64,000 bases of DNA, taken from contig JANNSJ010000058.1 in the NCBI GenBank assembly GCA_031402435.1, positions 65,588 through 129,587 on the forward strand, in the 5' to 3' direction. The translations under genes were made by a program, and so were the position numbers. This DNA comes from Bacteroidota bacterium. GTDB taxonomy: Bacteria > Bacteroidota > Ignavibacteria > UBA10030 > UBA6906. The notes below the pieces were generated by a model. That model saw nothing but the letters and a program-made list of their open reading frames with translations, did not search any database and was not told the origin of the DNA. This document shows, one piece after another, positions 42,453 to 52,578 of the stretch (the stretch's first letter is position 1; each line of letters opens with the position of its first letter).

Positions 42453-43787
42453 ATGTTTGAAGATCTAAGCCAAAAGCTTGAAGGCGTATTCAAGCGATTG
42501 CGGGGTCAGGGAAAGATCTCGGAAACAAACGTTGCCGAGACGCTTCGTGAAGTTCGGCGCGTCCTTCTTGATGCTGACGTCAACTATAAAGTAGCAAAAC
42601 AATTCGTTGAGGATGTACAGAAGCGGGCGGTCGGACAGGATGTTATTCAGAGCATCACCCCCGGACAACTCATCGTCAAGATTATTTATGATGAGTTGAT
42701 CAAACTGCTCGGCAGCGCGAAAGTTGAAATTTCGTTTTCGTCCATGCCGCCGTCAGTCATCATGGTGGCTGGGCTTCAGGGTTCGGGCAAGACGACGTTT
42801 TGTGCGAAGCTTGCCAATCACTTGAAGTCGCAGGGCAGGCATCCGTTGCTTGCTGCCGCGGATGTGTATCGTCCCGCTGCCATCGACCAGTTGATTACGC
42901 TCGGCGCGCAGATTGATATTCCTGTGTATTCCAATCGTGAGGCCGGTGCCGTTGCAATCGCAGAGCAGGCGGTTGATCACGCAAAGAAGAATGCTCGCGA
43001 CGTCGTTATCATCGACACTGCAGGCCGTCTTCATGTTGATGAAGAGATGATGAAGGAAGTCGAGGCAATCAAAGCCTCGGTCCACCCGCAGGAAATTCTG
43101 TTCGTGGTGGATGCAATGACCGGCCAGGATGCCGTGAACACAGCGAAGGCTTTTAACGACCGTCTGAACTTCGACGGCGCTGTGTTGACGAAGATGGATG
43201 GTGATGCCCGTGGCGGTGCCGCGATCTCGTTGCGCGCAACGGTTGGCAAGCCGATTAAGTTTATCAGCGTTGGCGAGAAGCTTGACGCTCTCGAGAAGTT
43301 TCATCCCGAACGTCTTGCTTCGCGTATTCTGGGCTACGGTGATATCGTCACGCTCGTGGAAAAGGCCCAGGAGCACTTCGATGAAGAGAAGGCGGTCAAG
43401 CTCGAGCAGAAGATCCGCAAGTCGCAGTTCACGCTTGAAGACTTCCTTGACCAACTCCAGGAAGTGAAGAAGATGGGACCGCTCAGCCAAGTGATGGGAA
43501 TGTTGCCGGGAATGAACAAAGTTCCACAGGATGCAATCCCGGATGACAAGGCGTTGGTGAAGATTGAAGCGATGATTCAATCGATGACAATCGAGGAACG
43601 GCAAAAGCCACAGGTGATCAACGGCAGCAGGCGCAAGCGCATTGCCATGGGAAGCGGAAGCACAGTGCAGGATCTTAACAAGCTGATGAAGCAATTTGAA
43701 CAGATGCAAAAAATGATGAAATCGATGGGCAAAGGGGTCGGCATGAACAAACTCATGCGCGGACGAAGAATGCCTGCAGGTTTTTAG
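42453..43787 (+). CDS. ffh: Signal recognition particle protein Ffh
   Basis: 444 aa. N domain, then the G domain (GLQGSGKTT, DTAGR, TKMDGDARGG), then a Met-rich M domain (MGMLPGMNK...MQKMMKSMGKG). Confidence 0.95.
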   Translation: MFEDLSQKLEGVFKRLRGQGKISETNVAETLREVRRVLLDADVNYKVAKQFVEDVQKRAVGQDVIQSITPGQLIVKIIYDELIKLLGSAKVEISFSSMPPSVIMVAGLQGSGKTTFCAKLANHLKSQGRHPLLAAADVYRPAAIDQLITLGAQIDIPVYSNREAGAVAIAEQAVDHAKKNARDVVIIDTAGRLHVDEEMMKEVEAIKASVHPQEILFVVDAMTGQDAVNTAKAFNDRLNFDGAVLTKMDGDARGGAAISLRATVGKPIKFISVGEKLDALEKFHPERLASRILGYGDIVTLVEKAQEHFDEEKAVKLEQKIRKSQFTLEDFLDQLQEVKKMGPLSQVMGMLPGMNKVPQDAIPDDKALVKIEAMIQSMTIEERQKPQVINGSRRKRIAMGSGSTVQDLNKLMKQFEQMQKMMKSMGKGVGMNKLMRGRRMPAGF

Positions 43788-43834
43788 CGAATGTGTAAAC
43801 AACACTCAACAGTACATATCTAAGGAGAAACAGC

Positions 43835-44299
43835 GTGGCAGTACGAATAAGACTACGCCGGGTCGGCAAAAAGAAAATGCCGGTCTATCATATCGTCGTT
43901 GCAGATTCGCGCGCAGCGCGCACGGGTAAGTTCCTCGAAATCGTTGGCCGGTACGATCCATTGCAGCATCCTCTGCAGGTTTCAACAAAAGAGGAGCGGG
44001 TGTTCTACTGGTTGAAAGTAGGAGCGTTGCCAACGGACACCGTGCGCAGCCTTCTGCAGAGAACCGGACTTTGGCTGAAGTGGGGTATGATGAAGAAGGG
44101 TGCCGATGAAACGGCGATCGCTGCTGCCGTGGAGAAATGGCAGATGGGTCAGGTCGAGAAGCGCCAGCGGGACGACGCTCGCAAGGCACGACGCGTGGCT
44201 GCCCGCAAGGCAAAGAAGTCTGCCAGCGCTGAAGCAGCAGCTCCTGCACCCGCAGCTGCTCCGGCTCCCGCACCTGCCGAAGCAAAAGCCGAGGCATAA
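43835..44299 (+). CDS. rpsP: 30S ribosomal protein S16 with extended Ala/Pro/Lys-rich C-terminal tail
   Basis: GTG start with AAGGAGA 7 nt upstream. N-terminus AVRIRLRRVGKKKMPVYHIVVADSRAARTGKFLEIVGRYDP is canonical S16. The C-terminal approx 60 aa are low-complexity (AAPAPAAAPAPAPAEAKAEA). Confidence 0.9.
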   Translation: MAVRIRLRRVGKKKMPVYHIVVADSRAARTGKFLEIVGRYDPLQHPLQVSTKEERVFYWLKVGALPTDTVRSLLQRTGLWLKWGMMKKGADETAIAAAVEKWQMGQVEKRQRDDARKARRVAARKAKKSASAEAAAPAPAAAPAPAPAEAKAEA

Positions 44300-44302
44300 C
44301 AA

Positions 44303-44818
44303 CTGGGCAAGCAGCCTCTCTATGCCATCGGAAAAGTTGCCAAGGCATTTGGGATAAAAGGAGAAGTCGTCGTCCTGTTGATGACCGAGGCGCCGGAACG
44401 GTTCAAGAAACTCAAACACGTTCATCTCGGTAAACGGTCGGACAACACAAGGACGATGACGGTCGAATACGTACACGTGGAATCGAGGGGTGTACGTTTG
44501 AAGTTTGTCGAAACACCCGATAGGACAAGCGCCGAAACCGTGGTTGGCTCCCTGCTTTTCGTGGAAGAAGATCAGCGGATCAAGCCGAAAAAGGGAACGC
44601 ACTTTATCCACGATGTGGTCGGACTTCGGGTGGTCGATGAGAACAATAACGAAGTTGGCATGGTCAAGGATGTGCTTCAATATCCGGGTCACGACCTCTA
44701 CGTGATTGAACATGATGGACGTGAATGGATGATCCCCGCCGTCAAGGAATTTGTTACTTCGATTGATGTTTCAGCGAGAACGATGAAGGTACGGTTGATA
44801 GAAGGGTTGATGGAGTGA
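44303..44818 (+). CDS. rimM: Ribosome maturation factor RimM (start codon uncertain)
   Basis: RimM N-domain motif AIGKVAKAFGIKGEVVVLL and the PRC-barrel C-domain (IHDVVGLRVVDENNNEVGMVKDVL). The conserved N-terminal motif is encoded upstream of the first in-frame ATG/TTG (44378/44381). The frame is open from the rpsP stop, and the only candidate is CTG at 44303. Confidence 0.6.
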   Translation: MGKQPLYAIGKVAKAFGIKGEVVVLLMTEAPERFKKLKHVHLGKRSDNTRTMTVEYVHVESRGVRLKFVETPDRTSAETVVGSLLFVEEDQRIKPKKGTHFIHDVVGLRVVDENNNEVGMVKDVLQYPGHDLYVIEHDGREWMIPAVKEFVTSIDVSARTMKVRLIEGLME

Positions 44819-44820
44819 TG

Positions 44821-45501
44821 ATGAGGATTGATGTCGTCACAGGATTACCGAAGATACTCACAAGCCCGTTGAATGAGAGTATCATCAAGCGTGCGCAGGA
44901 AAACAAGCTTGTGGAGATTGTTGTTCATGATCTCCGTGACTACACCACGGACAAGCATCGCACGATTGATGACACTCCCTTCGGGGGCGGTGCCGGAATG
45001 ATCCTGAAGCCCGAGCCGGTGTTCTCATGCGTCGATACACTCCGTGAGCAGAGACAGTATGACGAAGTCATCTACCTTACTGCAGACGGAGAGCGCCTGA
45101 CACAACGGATTGCAAACGAGCTTTCTCTTAAAACGAATTTGCTTCTGCTGTGCGGGCACTACAAAGGAGTTGACGAACGGATTCGAGAGTCACTCGTGAC
45201 GCGTGAGATTTCCATCGGCGACTATGTATTGACGGGTGGTGAGTTGCCGGCACTTGTGCTCATGGATGCCGTGATCAGGTTGATTCCCGGCGCGGTGGGC
45301 GATGGTGAATCGCTGCTTACAGACTCGTTTCAAGGGAATATGCTCGACGCTCCGCACTATACACGACCCGCGGAATTCAGGGGAATGAAAGTACCGGATG
45401 TACTGTTATCAGGGAACCACGGCGATATTGCAACATGGCGGGAAGAGCAATCGCTCAAACGCACGCAGGAACGACGCAACGATCTAATTGAACATTCATA
45501 A
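44821..45501 (+). CDS. trmD: tRNA (guanine37-N1)-methyltransferase
   Basis: [14 protein letters not shown]-terminus and SPOUT-knot motifs ([38 protein letters not shown]). Alternative in-frame starts at 44815 (GTG) and 44818 (ATG). Confidence 0.9.
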
Positions 45502-45524
45502 ACATTGTAGCACTGGAGAATCAT

Positions 45525-45866
45525 ATGGAACAGATCAAGCTTGTCGATGCAGCACAAATGAGAAGCGACATCCCGGCGTTTTCCCCCGGTGACACAATCA
45601 ATGTTCACGTCCGCGTTGTGGAAGGGGACAAGGAACGTATCCAGCAATTCCAGGGTGTGGTCATTGGCCGCCACGGATCAGGCATGAACGCGACCTTCAC
45701 TGTCCGCAAAGTATCCGACGGCGTTGGCGTGGAGCGCATCTTTCCGTTGCACTCACCCCGTCTCGCAAAAATCGAGAGAGTGAAAGAAGGATCAGTGCGG
45801 CGCGCAAAACTGTACTATCTCCGCAATCTGGCCTCGAAACAGATTCGCCAGAAGACGACCGCCTGA
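45525..45866 (+). CDS. rplS: 50S ribosomal protein L19
   Basis: 113 aa. [29 protein letters not shown] and RRAKLYYLR are canonical L19. Confidence 0.9.
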
Positions 45867-45993
45867 CGAGCTGTTGCTGCTCATCTACTTAACAACGTAG
45901 ACTGGAACTGCTCCAGCGTAAGCAGAAGAAATCACACCATGAAGGCTGTCGGTATCGAAGAGATGCCGCCAGCCTTCGTACTTTCGAGAGACA

Positions 45994-46833
45994 ATGAACA
46001 CACGCAAACGTTTAGGATTGAACGCGGAGATATGCTGTGCGCCCGTATTTCGCGGACTGCGTGACAGAGTGGAGTTCGAATGCATAACGGATGTTGTAGC
46101 GCAGAACGCAATCAAGATGCGCGAGCATGACCTTGAGGCCGCATTTCTTTCGCCAGTTGATTATGCGCGTGAAAGCTCAGACTACCATATCATCCCGAAC
46201 GTTGCAGTCTCTTCCCGAATGCCGAGCAATACGATTGTCCTTCATTTCAAAGAAGGACTGAAGAGCATCAACACGCTCGCTGTTCATCCCACATCAACAT
46301 CGGAGATTGTTCTCGCTTCGATTCTCCTCGGAGAGCAGTTTGACGTGCGGCCGACAATCGTTCCTGCAATGGGCTCGCTCGATCAGATGCTTCGATCGGC
46401 AGATGCCGCACTTCTCGTGGGCAATGCAGCGTTGAAGCACGCGCATGTCAGCGAGAACAGGATTGATCTTGTGGAAGAATGGCACGACATGACCGACCTG
46501 CCCTATGTCCATGGATTTTGGTGCGTGCGTGAAGCAGGAATGACGAAGCCCGACATTCTGGCGATACAGGAAGCATGCGACACGGGCGTAAGTGTCATAA
46601 AAGACATTGCGCAGGCTGAAGCGGCAAACATTGCCCCGCTCTTCTCTTCCGATTCGCTGAAGCAGTATCTTGAACATTTCTCCTATCTCTTCTCTGACGA
46701 AGAACAGGATGCGGTGATGGAATTTCTCCGCTATGCGTTCTACCACGGCATCCTGCCGGATGTTGCCGATCTCCATTTCTATCCGGTTGATGATGAAGAT
46801 GGAACCCCACTTCCCGACCCCTCTCTCAATTAG
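45994..46833 (+). CDS. MqnA/MqnD-family protein (futalosine-pathway menaquinone biosynthesis, SBP-like fold), putative
   Basis: N-terminus RLGLNAEICCAPVFRGL follows the RLG...N..P....L pattern of PF02621. SPVDYARE...YHIIPNVAVSS matches the mid-protein conserved block. Confidence 0.5.
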   Translation: MNTRKRLGLNAEICCAPVFRGLRDRVEFECITDVVAQNAIKMREHDLEAAFLSPVDYARESSDYHIIPNVAVSSRMPSNTIVLHFKEGLKSINTLAVHPTSTSEIVLASILLGEQFDVRPTIVPAMGSLDQMLRSADAALLVGNAALKHAHVSENRIDLVEEWHDMTDLPYVHGFWCVREAGMTKPDILAIQEACDTGVSVIKDIAQAEAANIAPLFSSDSLKQYLEHFSYLFSDEEQDAVMEFLRYAFYHGILPDVADLHFYPVDDEDGTPLPDPSLN

Positions 46834-46853
46834 CTCTTGTACGTTCAGAAGTA

Positions 46854-46875
46854 GGTCAGGCATTCCTGCCTGACC
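46854..46875 (+). promoter_or_regulatory. Perfect 9-bp inverted repeat (ggtcaggca-ttcc-tgcctgacc) in the recN upstream region
   Basis: Seen directly in the sequence, 78 nt upstream of the recN ATG. It is followed about 20 nt later by TATAAT (46896..46901) and has no T-run, so it is a possible operator or structured 5' element rather than an intrinsic terminator. Confidence 0.25.
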
Positions 46876-46952
46876 GCTGAGCATCGTCGTATAATTGAAT
46901 CTTATACAAAAGATGGGTAGATTAGTCCAAATCCAACCGTATTACTTCCATC

Positions 46953-48659
46953 ATGATCAAATCCCTCTTCATAAAAAATTATGCGCTGATTGAAGAGCTC
47001 TCCGTTGAGTTCTCCAACGGGCTTGTCATTATTACGGGGGAAACCGGAGCAGGCAAGTCGATTATCATCGATGCGTTGGGATTGATTATCGGTATGCGTG
47101 CAAGTGCGGATGTTGTTCGGGCAGGCAGCGACAAGGCAATCGTTGAAGGCGTGTTCGCTATTGCCGGGAACAGGAAAGTCAAAGCCCTTCTCAATGAAAA
47201 TGAACTTGACACTGTTGATGACCTGATTATCCGCAGAGAAATCTCGGCAAAGGGACAGAGCCGGTGCTTTGTCAATGATACTCCCATTACGATTGGTTTG
47301 CAGAAACAGATAGGCGAACTCCTCGTTGACCTCCACGGTCAGCACGAACACCAATCACTATTGCGTCGCGAGACACATGTTGAGATGCTCGATGACTTTG
47401 GTGGACTTGCAGGCTTGGTTGAGGAATTCCATTCGACATTCAAAAGGCTCGGTGATGCATCAAGCCAAATGGAGGAGATGCGCGCCCGTGAAGAACGTTT
47501 GAGAGAGAAGCGGGAGTTCTACCAGTTCCAGATACAGGAGATTGATGCCGTTGCTCCACTTGCCGGAGAAGAAGAGCAGCTCGAAGCGGAACTGAAGATT
47601 CTTGAGAACGCGGAAACACTCTACACCGCCACGGGCAAGATCTATGAGATGTTGTATGAAGGCGAGCAGTCCATTCACGATCTGCTCGTGCTGGTGCGGA
47701 ATCAGATTCACGATCTTGCTGCAATTGACAAGCAGTTCGAATCGGGAGCGAAGGAAAGCGAATCGGCGGTGGCGATTATCAGTGAGCTGGCGAAGTTCAC
47801 ACAAGGTTACAACGCAAAGATCGAGTTCAATCCCGAGAGGCTTGAAGCAATCAGGCAGCGACTTGCCCGCCTCACACAACTGAAACGCAAGTATGGTGGC
47901 TCTCTCGACAGCGTAATCGCTCATCGTGAGAAGATCGGTCAGGAGGTTGCACTTGCCGAGAACTTCGATGAAGTGATTGCGAAGCTCGTTGCCGAAGTTG
48001 AGTCTGCCCGTACAGAATGCGCAACGCTCGCCCAGCGATTGACGACGAAGCGCCGAGAGACGGCAAAGAAGATCGACAAAGGAATCGTTGCCGAGTTGGT
48101 AAAGCTTGGCATTCACAACGCAACCTTTGCAACGCAGATCAATCAGGTGGAGATGGAGAACGGCTCGGAACCGTTCATCCTGCAGGGCAAGAAACACATT
48201 GCGCTCAACTCCCGAGGTTGCGATGACGTGGAGTTCCTGATTTCAACGAATATGGGTGAGGATGTAAAGCCGTTGGTGAAAGTCGCTTCCGGCGGCGAAG
48301 TCTCGCGCATTATGCTTGCACTCAAGAGCATCCTTGCAAAGTCGGACAGGCTGCCGGTGTTGATTTTTGATGAAATTGACGTGGGCGTAAGCGGACGTGT
48401 GGCGCAGGCTGTTGGACTGAGCCTGAAGAGCCTCTCATCGTTCCACCAGGTTGTTGCCATTACGCATCTTCCGCAGATCGCCGGACTGGCAGACACACAC
48501 TTTGCAGTATCCAAGGCCGAAGATGGCAAACGCACCAAGACCACCATGCGCAAGCTCTCACTCGATGAGCGCGTACGAGAAGTTGCCAAGTTGATGAGCG
48601 GAGCGGAAGTAACGGAGGCGGGAATGGTTGGAGCAAAAGAATTGATGGGGATGAAGTGA
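46953..48659 (+). CDS. recN: DNA repair protein RecN
   Basis: 568 aa. N-terminal Walker A ITGETGAGKSIIIDAL, a long coiled-coil, and a C-terminal signature/Walker B region (SGGEVSRIMLAL...LIFDEIDVGVSG). Confidence 0.9.
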   Translation: MIKSLFIKNYALIEELSVEFSNGLVIITGETGAGKSIIIDALGLIIGMRASADVVRAGSDKAIVEGVFAIAGNRKVKALLNENELDTVDDLIIRREISAKGQSRCFVNDTPITIGLQKQIGELLVDLHGQHEHQSLLRRETHVEMLDDFGGLAGLVEEFHSTFKRLGDASSQMEEMRAREERLREKREFYQFQIQEIDAVAPLAGEEEQLEAELKILENAETLYTATGKIYEMLYEGEQSIHDLLVLVRNQIHDLAAIDKQFESGAKESESAVAIISELAKFTQGYNAKIEFNPERLEAIRQRLARLTQLKRKYGGSLDSVIAHREKIGQEVALAENFDEVIAKLVAEVESARTECATLAQRLTTKRRETAKKIDKGIVAELVKLGIHNATFATQINQVEMENGSEPFILQGKKHIALNSRGCDDVEFLISTNMGEDVKPLVKVASGGEVSRIMLALKSILAKSDRLPVLIFDEIDVGVSGRVAQAVGLSLKSLSSFHQVVAITHLPQIAGLADTHFAVSKAEDGKRTKTTMRKLSLDERVREVAKLMSGAEVTEAGMVGAKELMGMK

Positions 48660-50344
48660 AAAAGACAATTAAGAAATCTCCTAAGAGGAAGTCAGCCAAG
48701 CCCAAGGGTAAGAAAGTAACGTACTCTAAAGCACGCGCCGTAAAGCGTCTGGTCAAAGAAAATCAAGACTTCATGACCTTCAAAGAGGCAAGCGAATGGG
48801 CGACCAATCACCTAAAGAAGAGCGTTACGACTTCCAACATCTCCTACTTAGTTCAATACGGACGAGTCAAGAAGTATGGAGAAAACGGTACAACAAGAAT
48901 ACGAAAGGCTGATCTTGTAAAATACTATGAATCCTACAACGGTCGGCGAGAGGTTTCCTGGAAGAAACAGCTAGGCGGCGACTTGAACTGGCAGCTCTCG
49001 TTTGATCAGGTAAGGGAAATAGAAACAACAAAACATGTCCATCGATTGCACCCGTATAAGGGAAAATTTATACCTCAACTCGTTGAGTACTTCCTTGATG
49101 ACCACATAGACTCTTTCAAGAAGGAAACCTATTTTTCAAAGGGCGATATAGTCCTTGATCCGTTTTGTGGTAGCGGAACTACTCTTGTTCAAAGTTCTGA
49201 ACTCGGACTTCATGCAATCGGAATAGATGTTTCAGAGTTTAATGCTCTGATAACAAATGTCAAAATTGGAAAGCATGACCTCTCCTTACTTCGGGACAGC
49301 ATTAATACGATAACTGAATCCTTGAAGAAATTGTTGTCTAGCAGTCATTCTGTTCAGTTCGAAAGTAGATTACTTGAAGAGTTATACAAGTTCAACAATC
49401 TGCACTTTCCAGTTCCTGGGTACAAATACAAGGTGAAGCGCAGAGAGATTGACGAGGACAAGTATGGCAACGAGAAGGCGAACAAATTCTTACCAATCTT
49501 TACGAAGCTTGTAAAAGAGTATAAGATTGCGCTCAGACAGGATCACCCATCGCAGACCTTCTTGGAGAAGTGGTATTCGGAACACGTTTTGAGCGAAATT
49601 GGCCACGTGTTCGAAGAAATTAAGAGAGTAAAGGAAAAGGGGACGCAAGATGTTCTACGAATCATACTTAGTAGAACAATTCGTTCCTGTCGTGCCACTA
49701 CACACTCTGATCTCGCTACCCTCTTAGAACCGGTAACTTCAACATATTATTGTACAAAGCACGGAAAGATATGCAAGCCACTATTCTCTATCCTGAAATG
49801 GTGGGAGTTTTATTCTCAGGATACTATCAAGAGGCTGGATGCTTTTGATAAGCTGAGGACTCTCACCCATCAACTCTGTCTTACTGGCGACAGTCGAACA
49901 ATGGATATAGCAAGCGAGCTCGAATCAATTTCTCCCCAGATGGCTGAGATGGTACAGGAAAAGAAGATAGATGGGATTTTTTCGAGTCCCCCGTATGTTG
50001 GCTTGATTGACTATCATGAACAGCACGCTTACGCGTACGATTTGTTCCAGTTTGAACGGAGAGATGAACTAGAAATCGGCAGGATGTATCGCGGCCAAGG
50101 AAAGGAAGCAAGAGACTCCTATGCCAAGGGGGTTTCTGATGTTCTAAACAACTGCAAGCGCTTCCTTGCTAAGGATTACGATGTTTTTCTCGTTGCCAAC
50201 GATAGGTTTAATCTGTACCCAGGTATTGCTGCGATGAGTGGAATGCAAATCGTAAATCAATTCAAACGACCAGTTTTGAATAGAACAGAGAAGGACAAAG
50301 GAGCATATTCCGAGATCATCTTTCATTTGAAGTCTGAGTCATAA
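48656..50344 (+). CDS. DNA methyltransferase (N6-adenine/N4-cytosine; alpha-like motif order) with Lys-rich N-terminal extension; low-GC island
   Basis: GTG start overlapping the recN stop (GTGA). Motif X-like HPYKGKFIPQLVEYFL, motif I LDPFCGSGTT, motif IV SSPPY about 280 aa later, and a post-IV block FLAKDYDVFLVAND. This is a paralogue of the methylase half of 24914..27181. Local GC is about 40% against about 53% in the flanks. Confidence 0.7.
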   Translation: MKKTIKKSPKRKSAKPKGKKVTYSKARAVKRLVKENQDFMTFKEASEWATNHLKKSVTTSNISYLVQYGRVKKYGENGTTRIRKADLVKYYESYNGRREVSWKKQLGGDLNWQLSFDQVREIETTKHVHRLHPYKGKFIPQLVEYFLDDHIDSFKKETYFSKGDIVLDPFCGSGTTLVQSSELGLHAIGIDVSEFNALITNVKIGKHDLSLLRDSINTITESLKKLLSSSHSVQFESRLLEELYKFNNLHFPVPGYKYKVKRREIDEDKYGNEKANKFLPIFTKLVKEYKIALRQDHPSQTFLEKWYSEHVLSEIGHVFEEIKRVKEKGTQDVLRIILSRTIRSCRATTHSDLATLLEPVTSTYYCTKHGKICKPLFSILKWWEFYSQDTIKRLDAFDKLRTLTHQLCLTGDSRTMDIASELESISPQMAEMVQEKKIDGIFSSPPYVGLIDYHEQHAYAYDLFQFERRDELEIGRMYRGQGKEARDSYAKGVSDVLNNCKRFLAKDYDVFLVANDRFNLYPGIAAMSGMQIVNQFKRPVLNRTEKDKGAYSEIIFHLKSES

Positions 50345-51126
50345 TGGCACTATCAAAGATTCAAATTCAGCACGTTGAAGCTGTTCTTCGAGACAGCCTT
50401 AGGAACAAGTTTCAGAACTACAACCCAGAGCCAGCCTCAATGCCATTTCATACAAGGCTGCTTGGTAAGGATAGACTGGCTCTATATTCATTCATACATT
50501 CGCTCAGCACGAATTTTGGGACTTCCATATTTGAACCCGTGGCAAAAACGCTCGCATCCACAAGCTTTAAGCTGGCTGAATCTCATGTGACGGCAGGAGT
50601 TGAAATAAGCACTGAGGCTCAGCGCGAAATTCAGAGAATAATGGATGGTCTTACAACTGCTACGTCAATGCCTAACAAGAAAGAAGAAACTGAGAGGCTT
50701 CGTCGAGTTTGCAGAAAGGGCAAAATGGTCGATATTAATCTCACCAAGGTTGATGTGAAGCTGGTTTCTCACGATGATGAGGTTTATTTGATTGACATCA
50801 AAACGGCAAAACCAAATGCAGGGGGATTCAAAGAATTCAAAAGAACTTTACTAGAATGGGTTGCCACTACTCTTGCGGCCGATCCCAAAGTTCAGGTCAA
50901 AAGTATAATTGCGATTCCTTATAACCCATATGAGCCACAGCAGTATAATCGCTGGACAATGCGTGGTATGTTGGATTTGGCGGAAGAACTAAAAGTTGCA
51001 GAAGAGTTTTGGGATTTTGTGGGGAATCGCGGAACTTATGTTAGTTTACTCAAATGTTTTGAGAGAGTTGGGATTGAGCTTCGTGTCGAGATTGACGAAT
51101 ACTTTTCTAGATTTAAAGGATTGTAA
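50344..51126 (+). CDS. Putative type II restriction endonuclease (PD-(D/E)xK-like), cognate to the upstream methyltransferase
   Basis: 260 aa. Its ATG overlaps the methylase stop (TAATG). Candidate catalytic core HDDEVYLIDIKTAKPNAGG (D...(D/E)xK). It is similar over its length to the C-terminal domain of the fused protein at 24914..27181. Same low GC as the methylase. Confidence 0.45.
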   Translation: MALSKIQIQHVEAVLRDSLRNKFQNYNPEPASMPFHTRLLGKDRLALYSFIHSLSTNFGTSIFEPVAKTLASTSFKLAESHVTAGVEISTEAQREIQRIMDGLTTATSMPNKKEETERLRRVCRKGKMVDINLTKVDVKLVSHDDEVYLIDIKTAKPNAGGFKEFKRTLLEWVATTLAADPKVQVKSIIAIPYNPYEPQQYNRWTMRGMLDLAEELKVAEEFWDFVGNRGTYVSLLKCFERVGIELRVEIDEYFSRFKGL

Positions 51127-52578
51127 GTGACAGCCACCGTCCTCACTCTCTACAACACCCTCACCCGACAAAAAGAAGAATTCAAACCTCTCCACGAAGG
51201 CCACGTTGGTATGTACGTGTGTGGCCCGACGGTGTACGGCCACTCGCACATCGGTCATGCGAAGAGCTATGTTTCGTTTGATGTCATCGTCAGATACCTT
51301 CGCTATCGCGGGTACAAGGTCACATACGTCCAGAACATCACAGATGTTGGCCATCTGCTTGGAGAAACCAACGAAGGAGAAGACCGGCTTCTGCGCCAGG
51401 GGCGTCTCGAACAAAAGCATCCGATGGAGATTGCCGAGTCGTACACGCGCAGCTACTTTGAGGACATGGATGCGCTGGGCGTTCTTCGTCCCGACATCTC
51501 GCCACGGGCAACAGGCCACATCATCGAGCAAATCGAAATCATCAAAACCCTGATCGGGAAAGGCTACGCCTACGAAGCCAACGGCTCCGTGTATTTCGAT
51601 GTTGCAAAGGATCGCGAATACGGCAAGCTCTCCGGACGTAATACTGATGAGGCTGAGTCCGGCACGCGTGTGAACGTGAAGAGCGAGAAACATCACCCGA
51701 ACGATTTTGCGTTGTGGAAGAAAGCCGAGCCTGAGCACATCATGCGTTGGCCGAGTCCGTGGGGTGTGGGCTTTCCCGGCTGGCACGTTGAATGTTCCGC
51801 GATGTCAATGAAATATCTCGGCGAAACGTTCGACATCCATGGCGGCGGAATGGATAACCAGTTCCCTCATCACGAGTGTGAAATTGCCCAGAGCGAATGT
51901 GCCACAGGCAAACCGTTCGCCCGCTACTGGATACACAACAACCTGGTGACTGTAAATAGCCAGAAGATGAGCAAGTCAATCGGCAACTTCATCTCGTTGA
52001 AAGACGCCTTCAAGAAATGGCGGCCGGAGGTGGTGCGTTTCTTCATTCTGCAGAGTCACTATCGCAGTACGCTGGATTTCAGCAATGAAGCAATTGATGG
52101 ATCGGCCAAAGGTCTTGAGCGGCTGGTCAACACCATTCGCAATGTACGGGAACGACTGCGCGGTGCGACTGCGGATGGCGGCACGATTGATCTTTCCAAA
52201 TTCAAATCCGATTTTCTCGCTTCGATGGATGACGACTTTAACGCACCACAGGCTGTCGCCACCCTCTTTGATATGAGCCGTGAAGTGAACCAGGCGTTGA
52301 GTTCAGGTTCTCTCAGTGCCACTTCGCTTCAGCAGATTCTCGATTTGTATCTTGAATTGGGAAATATTCTCGGCCTCAACTTACTGGAGACAAATTCATC
52401 GCAGGGAAGCAGTTCGAATCTCGACGCCCAGTTTATGGAACTGATTATCGCTCTGAGGCAGGAAATACGTGCGCAGAAACTTTGGCCGCTCTCTGACAAG
52501 ATACGCGATGGTTTGGTGAAGTTGGGGATTGTATTGGAAGACAAGAAAGACGGTACTTCGTGGAAGCGAAACTCGTAG
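51127..52578 (+). CDS. cysS: Cysteine--tRNA ligase
   Basis: Class I HIGH (GHSHIGH) and KMSKS (KMSKSIGN) motifs, zinc-binding Cys positions, and an anticodon-binding C-terminal domain. GTG start directly after the preceding stop codon. Confidence 0.9.

Follow-up and report, generated by a model that had tools for sequence, protein, structure and literature searches.

A TdeIII-family restriction-modification cassette lodged between recN and cysS in an Ignavibacteria genome

The DNA considered here is a 64,000-nucleotide stretch from a Bacteroidota bacterium of the class Ignavibacteria (contig JANNSJ010000058.1 of assembly GCA_031402435.1, positions 65,588 to 129,587 of the forward strand), referred to below as the window. 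Within it, a two-gene restriction-modification (R-M) cassette lies between the host genes recN and cysS. A DNA methyltransferase gene (M) is followed on the same strand by a separate, adjacent gene for a Type II restriction endonuclease (R) that overlaps it by one nucleotide, and the pair is joined to the host genes on either side without any spacer (coordinates in Table 1). Both open reading frames (ORFs) are full length, with no frameshifts and no internal stop codons, and an identical arrangement is present in two metagenome contigs from other runs; the samples known to contain this organism correspond to SRR20217205 and SRR20217196. An initial annotation, made from the letters of the DNA alone, had described an R-M-like cassette at this site, with methylase motifs I and IV, a PD-(D/E)xK-like ORF of 260 aa, and junctions devoid of intergenic DNA. 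These features are all upheld: M matches a Type II methyltransferase model and contains both motifs, R matches the RE_TdeIII profile along its length and has PD-(D/E)xK nucleases as its top fold matches, and the junctions can be read directly in the sequence.

The M protein matches the PADLOC model MTase_II (PDLC03249) with E=8e-235 over residues 35-561, nearly its full length, and the match to the Pfam profile N6_N4_Mtase (PF01555) is partial, covering only the half that contains motif I. Motif I comes ahead of motif IV, the two being separated by an insert of about 265 aa; both the DPFxGSGTT sequence (residues 168-176) and the SPPY sequence (residues 444-447) are invariant in 21 homologues. 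The insert contains a conserved cluster of Cys and His residues (C345, H350, C366, H369 and C373), which may form a zinc site within the target-recognition region. Most of the homologues of M have a length of 525-530 aa and start at the equivalent of M40 of the window protein, which carries a Lys/Arg-rich N-terminal extension ahead of that residue. The closest homologues conserve this extension, together with a Y[SP]..K.LVRE motif ahead of M40, and the sole in-frame start codon upstream of M40 is the GTG at 48656. Together these observations make the GTG start of M, and with it the left junction, credible.

The nuclease assignment comes from both sequence and structure. R matches the Pfam profile RE_TdeIII (PF09520) with E=2e-87 and 293 bits (the cut-off being 27.2), and the match spans positions 4-242 of the 242 in the profile. 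Its homologues number in the thousands, are about 70% identical, occur in many phyla, and are annotated as "TdeIII family type II restriction endonuclease", with one labelled "MjaII". An alignment of 26 homologues shows no variation at four positions (E64, D137, D151 and K153), and these candidate catalytic residues sit on a helix and strands predicted by AlphaFold2, in a model with a confidence score (pLDDT) of 77. When this model was searched with Foldseek, the only significant neighbour in the PDB was EcoO109I (E=3.5e-4, probability 1.0, TM score 0.45, 14% identity), with other PD-(D/E)xK nucleases ranking behind it. By sequence, R had no match in the PDB and none in NCBIfam. A contig look-up printed the label "HinfI" for PF09520, in conflict with the name "RE_TdeIII" given by the Pfam scan, and the scan was relied upon. 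Judged from its sequence and modelled fold, R is an endonuclease with an intact catalytic core.

The two genes are predicted to form an intact Type IIP R-M system with the specificity GGNCC. This prediction draws on MjaII, an active enzyme that recognizes GGNCC, and on EcoO109I, whose recognition site is RGGNCCY. The modification would be N4-methylcytosine, because a motif IV of the SPPY type indicates this base and because no adenine occurs at the fixed positions of GGNCC. The window contains 96 GGNCC sites, versus 198 ± 16 expected from dinucleotide shuffles, and the observed/expected ratio (O/E) of 0.78 in a third-order Markov model is the lowest among 16 comparable NNnNN palindromes. The cassette itself has no GGNCC, where 3-4 would be expected. 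Site avoidance was considered as proof of the specificity and rejected, since relatives with empty sites are depleted as well; it is retained as weak evidence. A side observation is that the window is free of GGNCC for 7.7 kb (43481-51222); the host part of this stretch, from rpsP to recN (43481-48655), has no site versus 7.4 (Markov) to 13.7 (dinucleotide) expected.

The cassette stands out from its surroundings in composition. Its G+C (GC) content is 0.425, compared to 0.512 for the rest of the window, which makes it the lowest of all 2471-bp segments (z=-8.2 against segments outside the cassette). GC at third codon positions (GC3) is 0.47 in M and 0.39 in R, with values of 0.53-0.63 in the neighbouring genes, and when codon adaptation is scored with an index derived from the other 47 ORFs of the window, R (0.715) and M (0.737) rank as the two lowest of 49 (0.802 ± 0.023). 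The AT-rich codon usage described initially is therefore borne out and the GC dip is highly significant, but the contents first quoted, about 40% for the cassette and about 53% for its neighbours, were inexact. As the same annotation had stated, no integrase or transposase gene is found around the cassette and no direct repeats bracket it; inverted repeats are likewise absent from its borders, the flanks consist of host genes that are syntenic in relatives, and a scan of the window found no tRNA gene and no Rfam match. The cassette thus lacks the features of a recombinase-borne mobile element (integrase or transposase, terminal repeats, target duplication, tRNA target), and it looks like an island in its composition and in its patchy presence against conserved synteny.

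The ancestral arrangement of the locus can be reconstructed from related genomes. A scan for RecN with one genome per species yielded about 35 Ignavibacteriota-like loci sharing the order rpsP-rimM-trmD-rplS-mqnA-recN-cysS, and the window RecN is 57-71% identical to the RecN proteins of Ignavibacteriota metagenome-assembled genomes. In about 20 of these species, including those of loci L003 and L005, recN directly adjoins cysS. The recN stop overlaps the cysS ATG or falls within a few bases of it (TAATG, TGATG, ATGA) in roughly half of the 20, and the other empty-site species have a gap of 20-180 bp. Because the pair is normally adjacent, as the synteny check proposed with the initial annotation was meant to establish, the cassette is foreign to the ancestral arrangement and represents an insertion into the operon, at a formerly coupled stop/start junction. 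Transport of the recN 3' end along with the cassette was also considered and is ruled out, since the terminal ELMGxK and stop are equally present at empty sites (L029, L030, L032); moreover, sliding-window comparison of RecN identity reveals no carrier-specific similarity near the 3' end. On the other side of the cassette, CysS begins with M[PSATH]L..YN from an ATG in 25 of 25 related loci. In the window, the codons GTG ACA GCC ACC GTC (VTATV), a GTG and four additional ones, stand in place of the ATG-CCN start of relatives and precede the corresponding LTLYN, and there is no other possible start. Read from the sequence, the native start codon of cysS is lost and the gene initiates directly after the R stop.

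Expression of the inserted genes appears to depend on the host operon. The TTGAAT-17-TAGATT element ahead of recN is the only plus-strand promoter-like match between 43.5 and 55.5 kb that agrees at 12 of 12 positions. Five species whose RecN proteins are only 63-71% identical have the 29-nt element (TTGAATCTT-N6-AAGATGGNTAGATT) ahead of recN without a single change. Between its -35 and -10 hexamers lies an operator-like palindrome, ATCTT-N6-AAGAT, and no other perfect copy of it occurs in the window. A generic terminator scan detected no convincing plus-strand terminator at any of the cassette junctions. Given this anatomy of promoter, terminators and junctions, the cassette most likely has neither promoter nor terminator of its own and is transcribed from the recN promoter as part of a recN-M-R-cysS message, from which M, R and cysS would probably be translated by termination-reinitiation at the overlapping or abutting stop and start codons.

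The same locus is occupied by related cassettes in other lineages. Seven of the eight closest M homologues, which are 70-75% identical to the window M, lie in the recN-cysS interval of other lineages, and in a neighbour-joining tree of 53 M sequences the genes from the recN locus (plus that of L089) form one clade, apart from metagenome M genes located elsewhere. Pairwise identity of M rises with that of RecN and CysS (rho about 0.5). Furthermore, the start of M overlaps the stop of recN by 4 nt in the window, in L009 (GTGA) and in L088 (ATGA), the last of these having been read from the sequence, with a tblastn match that begins at residue 1. These comparisons argue that the insertion is not a one-off event and that the M clade is a long-standing occupant of this junction in several lineages of the Ignavibacteriota. 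Plasmids and phages were considered as vectors for the M family and rejected: no M homologue was found in PLSDB or INPHARED at E<=1e-20, and only five contigs in IMG/VR carry one.

The composition of M also has to be viewed in this light. Of 32 independent loci, 31 have an M gene that is richer in AT than its flanks (mean offset -0.077 ± 0.044), and across loci the GC3 of M tracks the GC of the flanks with a slope of 0.96, an intercept of -0.08 and r=0.66. All carriers at the recN locus have an M/flank GC offset of 8-17 points, and the GC3 of the window gene, 0.47, is above the regression value of 0.41 for a host with 0.512 GC. Low GC is thus a family-wide property of M and does not date its acquisition. 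The initial annotation had taken the low GC as the signature of horizontal acquisition. The foreignness of the genes to the ancestral recN-cysS pair stands, and the low GC is not a sign of recency. It had added that the same two genes at the same position in relatives, with host-like GC, would mark an ancient resident; M plus an R of the TdeIII family do recur at this position, but their GC is not host-like.

The nuclease appears to have had a different history from the methyltransferase. The window M is 71-74% identical to M of the full-length sister cassettes (L083, L087, L088, L159 and L160), whereas the window R is 54% identical to the R of L088 and L159, 33% to that of L160, and 27% to that of L083, which is of a long, 343-aa type. 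Conversely, R is 72-74% identical to nucleases from unrelated contigs and other phyla, whose M proteins are only 58-65% identical to that of the window. Most loci of the TdeIII family have the order M then R, tightly packed. TdeIII-type M-R pairs in unrelated contigs are accompanied by a conserved acidic ORF (MKDPERIVYALTVEDLQNV...) of about 65 aa, located after R or between M and R. Besides the recN-locus examples in Table 1, it is found in L091, L093, L095, L099, L111, L116, L121 and L140; it has no match in Pfam or PADLOC, and neither the window cassette nor L160 contains it. The lower GC3 and codon adaptation of R relative to M, the absence of the 65-aa ORF, the rewritten cysS start, and the mismatch between R and M identities together suggest that in the window cassette the right-hand half is a replacement that postdates M.

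Several loci contain variants of this gene organization. Two PF09520 nucleases, a 351-aa long type and a 259-aa short type, stand side by side in L153, where an AIPR abortive-infection gene separates them from M, and L154 has two tblastn matches to the short R type. Such neighbouring paralogues suggest that differential loss could produce varied M-R pairings. In L150, a 63-aa ORF follows R; it was outside the comparison of the 65-aa ORFs. In L087, an R fragment of 56 codons comes after M and is fused to the final 37 codons of recN. Next is a second, different R-M pair, a beta-class N6_N4 methyltransferase with RE_EcoO109I, which is packed against cysS. Since M in L087 is preceded by a gene other than recN, recN looks disrupted on that contig.

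Table 1. Features of the recN-cysS interval in the window and at related loci (L numbers); positions refer to the sequence named in the second column
Feature	Sequence	Position	Strand	Remarks
recN promoter-like element TTGAAT-17 nt-TAGATT	window	46895..46923	+	spacer palindrome ATCTT-N6-AAGAT, 46899-46914
recN	window	46953..48659	+	568 aa; Pfam SMC_N and AAA_23; native C-terminus ...ELMGMK-stop kept
Left junction GTGA	window	48656..48659	+	M start GTG overlapping recN stop TGA (...AAG TGA)
DNA methyltransferase M	window	48656..50344	+	562 aa, amino-methyltransferase family
Lys/Arg-rich extension of M	window	48656-48772		residues 1-39
Motif I of M, DPFCGSGTT	window	49157-49183
Cys/His cluster region of M	window	49676-49783		residues 341-376
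Motif IV of M, SPPY	window	49985-49996
Internal junction TAATG (TCA TAA TG)	window	50340..50346	+	M stop TAA 50342-50344 overlaps R start ATG 50344-50346
Type II restriction endonuclease R	window	50344..51126	+	260 aa, TdeIII family, PD-(D/E)xK type
R candidate catalytic D151-x-K153	window	50794-50802	+	with E64, D137
Right junction TAA/GTG (TTG TAA GTG)	window	51124..51141	+	R stop 51124-51126 abuts cysS GTG 51127
cysS	window	51127..52578	+	483 aa; Pfam tRNA-synt_1e, E=5e-117
recN promoter-like element	L003	960-988
recN promoter-like element	L005	7945-7973
recN promoter-like element	L006/L008/L013	7966-7994
M locus	L083-86 / L090			recN-DUF3800-M-R(343 aa)-65 aa ORF-cysS
M locus	L088			recN-M-R-65 aa ORF-cysS
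M locus	L159			recN-S9-S9-M-R-65 aa ORF-cysS
M locus	L160 / L161			recN-M-R-cysS
M locus	L009			recN-M (contig ends)
M locus	L087	457-4153		M-R fragment-recN 3' fragment-second R-M (EcoO109I family)-cysS
M locus	L089			M in different context
~65-aa ORF	L083	6143-6340
~65-aa ORF	L088	4271-4468
~65-aa ORF	L159	8384-8581
Side-by-side PF09520 nucleases	L153	299-5465		351-aa long and 259-aa short type
Two short-type R matches	L154	5001-8163		tblastn
DUF3800	L012			between recN and cysS
DUF559	L020			between recN and cysS
Lone beta-class methylase	L023			between recN and cysS
S9 prolyl-oligopeptidase	L015	9717-11876		one or two genes, host-like GC, one sub-lineage
S9 prolyl-oligopeptidase	L016	9739-11874		as above
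S9 prolyl-oligopeptidase	L159	1696-5766		as above
23S_rRNA_IVP ORF	L021	9775-10184		~120 aa, PF05635, four-helix-bundle; inverted repeats
23S_rRNA_IVP ORF	L025	9708-10145		as above; inverted repeats
23S_rRNA_IVP ORF	L028	9708-10159		as above; inverted repeats
23S_rRNA_IVP ORF	L027			as above
23S_rRNA_IVP ORF	L031			as above

The preferred account of these observations is an intact Type IIP R-M system of the TdeIII/MjaII kind, sitting without a promoter in the recN operon, whose M belongs to an old, locus-bound clade and whose nuclease has been replaced repeatedly; we assign this reading a probability of roughly 0.75. According to this model, M would make N4-methylcytosine in GGNCC and so protect the chromosome, and R would cut unmethylated GGNCC in incoming DNA. 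Both genes would be expressed from the conserved recN promoter in the recN-M-R-cysS message, with M ahead of R. The cassette would have inserted where the recN stop ancestrally overlapped the cysS start, and the M clade would have been kept at the junction by vertical inheritance, by exchange between relatives through flanking homology, or by both. The nuclease gene would have been exchanged more than once, the newer traits of the window cassette being its R, the altered beginning of cysS and the fact that the 65-aa ORF has been lost.

A number of points weigh against this model. In the RecN tree, carriers of the cassette fall in three places with empty-site lineages between them, and L003 and L005, which are sister to the window organism, belong to the empty-site group. 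At least six losses would thus have to be assumed under vertical descent, and the history as a whole calls for several losses or for exchange between relatives through flanking homology. The trees are neighbour-joining trees of metagenome contigs, constructed without support values, and the co-divergence of M with its host has only a nominal P of about 0.06, calculated from non-independent pairs. A weak promoter-like site inside M, at 49083 (10 of 12 matches), could feed R and cysS. With respect to specificity, the pooled O/E of GGNCC is 0.46 in carriers and 0.60 in empty-site relatives, a carrier-specific difference that is not significant (Mann-Whitney p=0.09). Finally, a review lists M.MjaII as a 5-methylcytosine enzyme, unlike the window M, which is an amino-methyltransferase with an SPPY motif.

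Other explanations have to be weighed against the same evidence. A recent, one-off horizontal acquisition of the whole two-gene island from an AT-rich donor, recorded in its low GC, agrees with the cassette being the strongest compositional outlier of the window, with the empty sites of the two nearest relatives by RecN (L003 and L005), and with an R that is nearer to the nucleases of other phyla than to those of the sister cassettes. This history is nonetheless unlikely, given an AT-rich offset of M that recurs in nearly every locus and a GC3 that follows the host, with the window M above the regression; the recN-locus M genes form a single clade roughly following host divergence, and the left junction is common to two other lineages. 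A decaying or domesticated remnant, in which R is inactive and M persists as an orphan regulatory methylase kept by the essential operon, has precedents in the R fragment of L087 and in the lone methylase of L023. The window genes, however, are both uninterrupted, and R covers the whole Pfam profile with its candidate catalytic residues invariant, which makes such a remnant very improbable.

The initial annotation had raised the possibility that placement behind recN couples the cassette to DNA damage, so that M and R would be induced in the SOS response. The deeply conserved recN promoter with its operator-like palindrome would fit such regulation, but in the other carriers (L009, L083 and L088) the recN promoter lacks the palindrome, and none of five known LexA-box patterns was found upstream of recN in 21 genomes. 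Furthermore, cysS encodes an aminoacyl-tRNA synthetase and is presumed to be essential, as such enzymes generally are; since it is ancestrally coupled to the recN stop and shares its message, constitutive expression of the operon is presumed and expression upon damage alone is unlikely. The SOS proposal is thus unsupported, and we give it long odds. A dedicated capture site, where the recN/cysS junction is recognized by a site-specific or microhomology-driven mechanism that inserts promoterless cassettes, would account for the diversity of cargo in this interval (TdeIII-type and EcoO109I-type R-M systems, a lone methyltransferase, DUF3800, DUF559, 23S_rRNA_IVP ORFs flanked by inverted repeats, and S9 peptidases) and for the several cargos that begin at the recN stop or a few bases from it. 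The cargos nevertheless differ in their boundaries and spacers, and neither a recombinase gene nor an attC-like site nor a repeat common to their boundaries was found; a permissive site, together with exchange through flanking homology, accounts for the data, and a dedicated mechanism is hardly to be expected. A broader conjecture is that the recN/cysS overlap is a long-lived "operon slot" of the Ignavibacteriota, in which promoterless cassettes, whether selfish or defensive, are captured, become translationally coupled and are swapped among relatives, with M remaining stable, nucleases being exchanged, and loss of the R 3' end endangering cysS. We regard this as quite unlikely; were it true, positional addiction through cysS would add to ordinary post-segregational killing.

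Compared to known systems, the preferred reading of an intact TdeIII/MjaII-type cassette describes a biochemically routine Type II R-M system, from a family already in Pfam and in REBASE-derived libraries (PF09520, GGNCC). It resembles that family in its match to the whole RE_TdeIII profile, in the annotation of its homologues and in the tight M-then-R order, and differs in the N-terminal extension of M, found only in the closest homologues, and in lacking the accessory 65-aa ORF that is common in the family. EcoO109I (PDB 1WTD/1WTE) shares the PD-(D/E)xK fold, is the best structural neighbour of the R model, and has a site that contains GGNCC; an R-M system of its family fills the same recN/cysS slot in L087. 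It is nonetheless distant from R, with low identity, no link by sequence search, and membership of another Pfam family (PF14511). Only two features of the window cassette are mildly unusual: a locus-bound M clade with changing R partners, and a cysS start fused to the R stop.

Precedents also exist for the manner of insertion. Furuta, Abe & Kobayashi 2010 (PMC2853133) described R-M insertions and deletions between conserved flanks without mobility genes, with boundaries at translation start and stop sites, as well as a Type II R-M system inserted in an operon-like structure and allelic R-M substitution at one locus. The window cassette differs from those units in having no long target duplication, and in that its M is a locus-bound clade across deeply diverged species as the R alleles change. 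Defence hotspots flanked by core genes are likewise established (Johnson et al. 2023, PMC10250203; Hochhauser et al. 2023, PMC10121019), and the recN-cysS interval resembles them in its fixed position between conserved genes and its varied defence cargo from genome to genome. Those hotspots, however, extend over kilobases to hundreds of kilobases and are mostly filled by mobile elements, whereas the slot described here is 0-4 kb, lies within an operon, and contains no mobile-element genes, and some of its cargo (the S9 peptidase) is unrelated to defence. The locus illustrates that a low-GC "island" signal can reflect an intrinsic, family-wide trait of a defence gene instead of a recent transfer, and that the methylase of an R-M system can stay at one operon junction in deeply diverged species as its nuclease partner is replaced. 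It also provides a small, recombinase-free variable slot in a housekeeping operon that could be mined for cargo in Ignavibacteriota genomes.

The remaining cargo of the slot is listed in Table 1; neither a recombinase nor a common boundary motif was found across the recN-cysS cargos. The S9 peptidases show that the slot is not limited to defence or selfish cargo. Three of the 23S_rRNA_IVP ORFs (L021, L025 and L028) are surrounded by inverted repeats of 17-31 nt, with the units TAGGTGTTAGG / CCTAACACCTA, which suggests a small, stem-flanked element within an mRNA.

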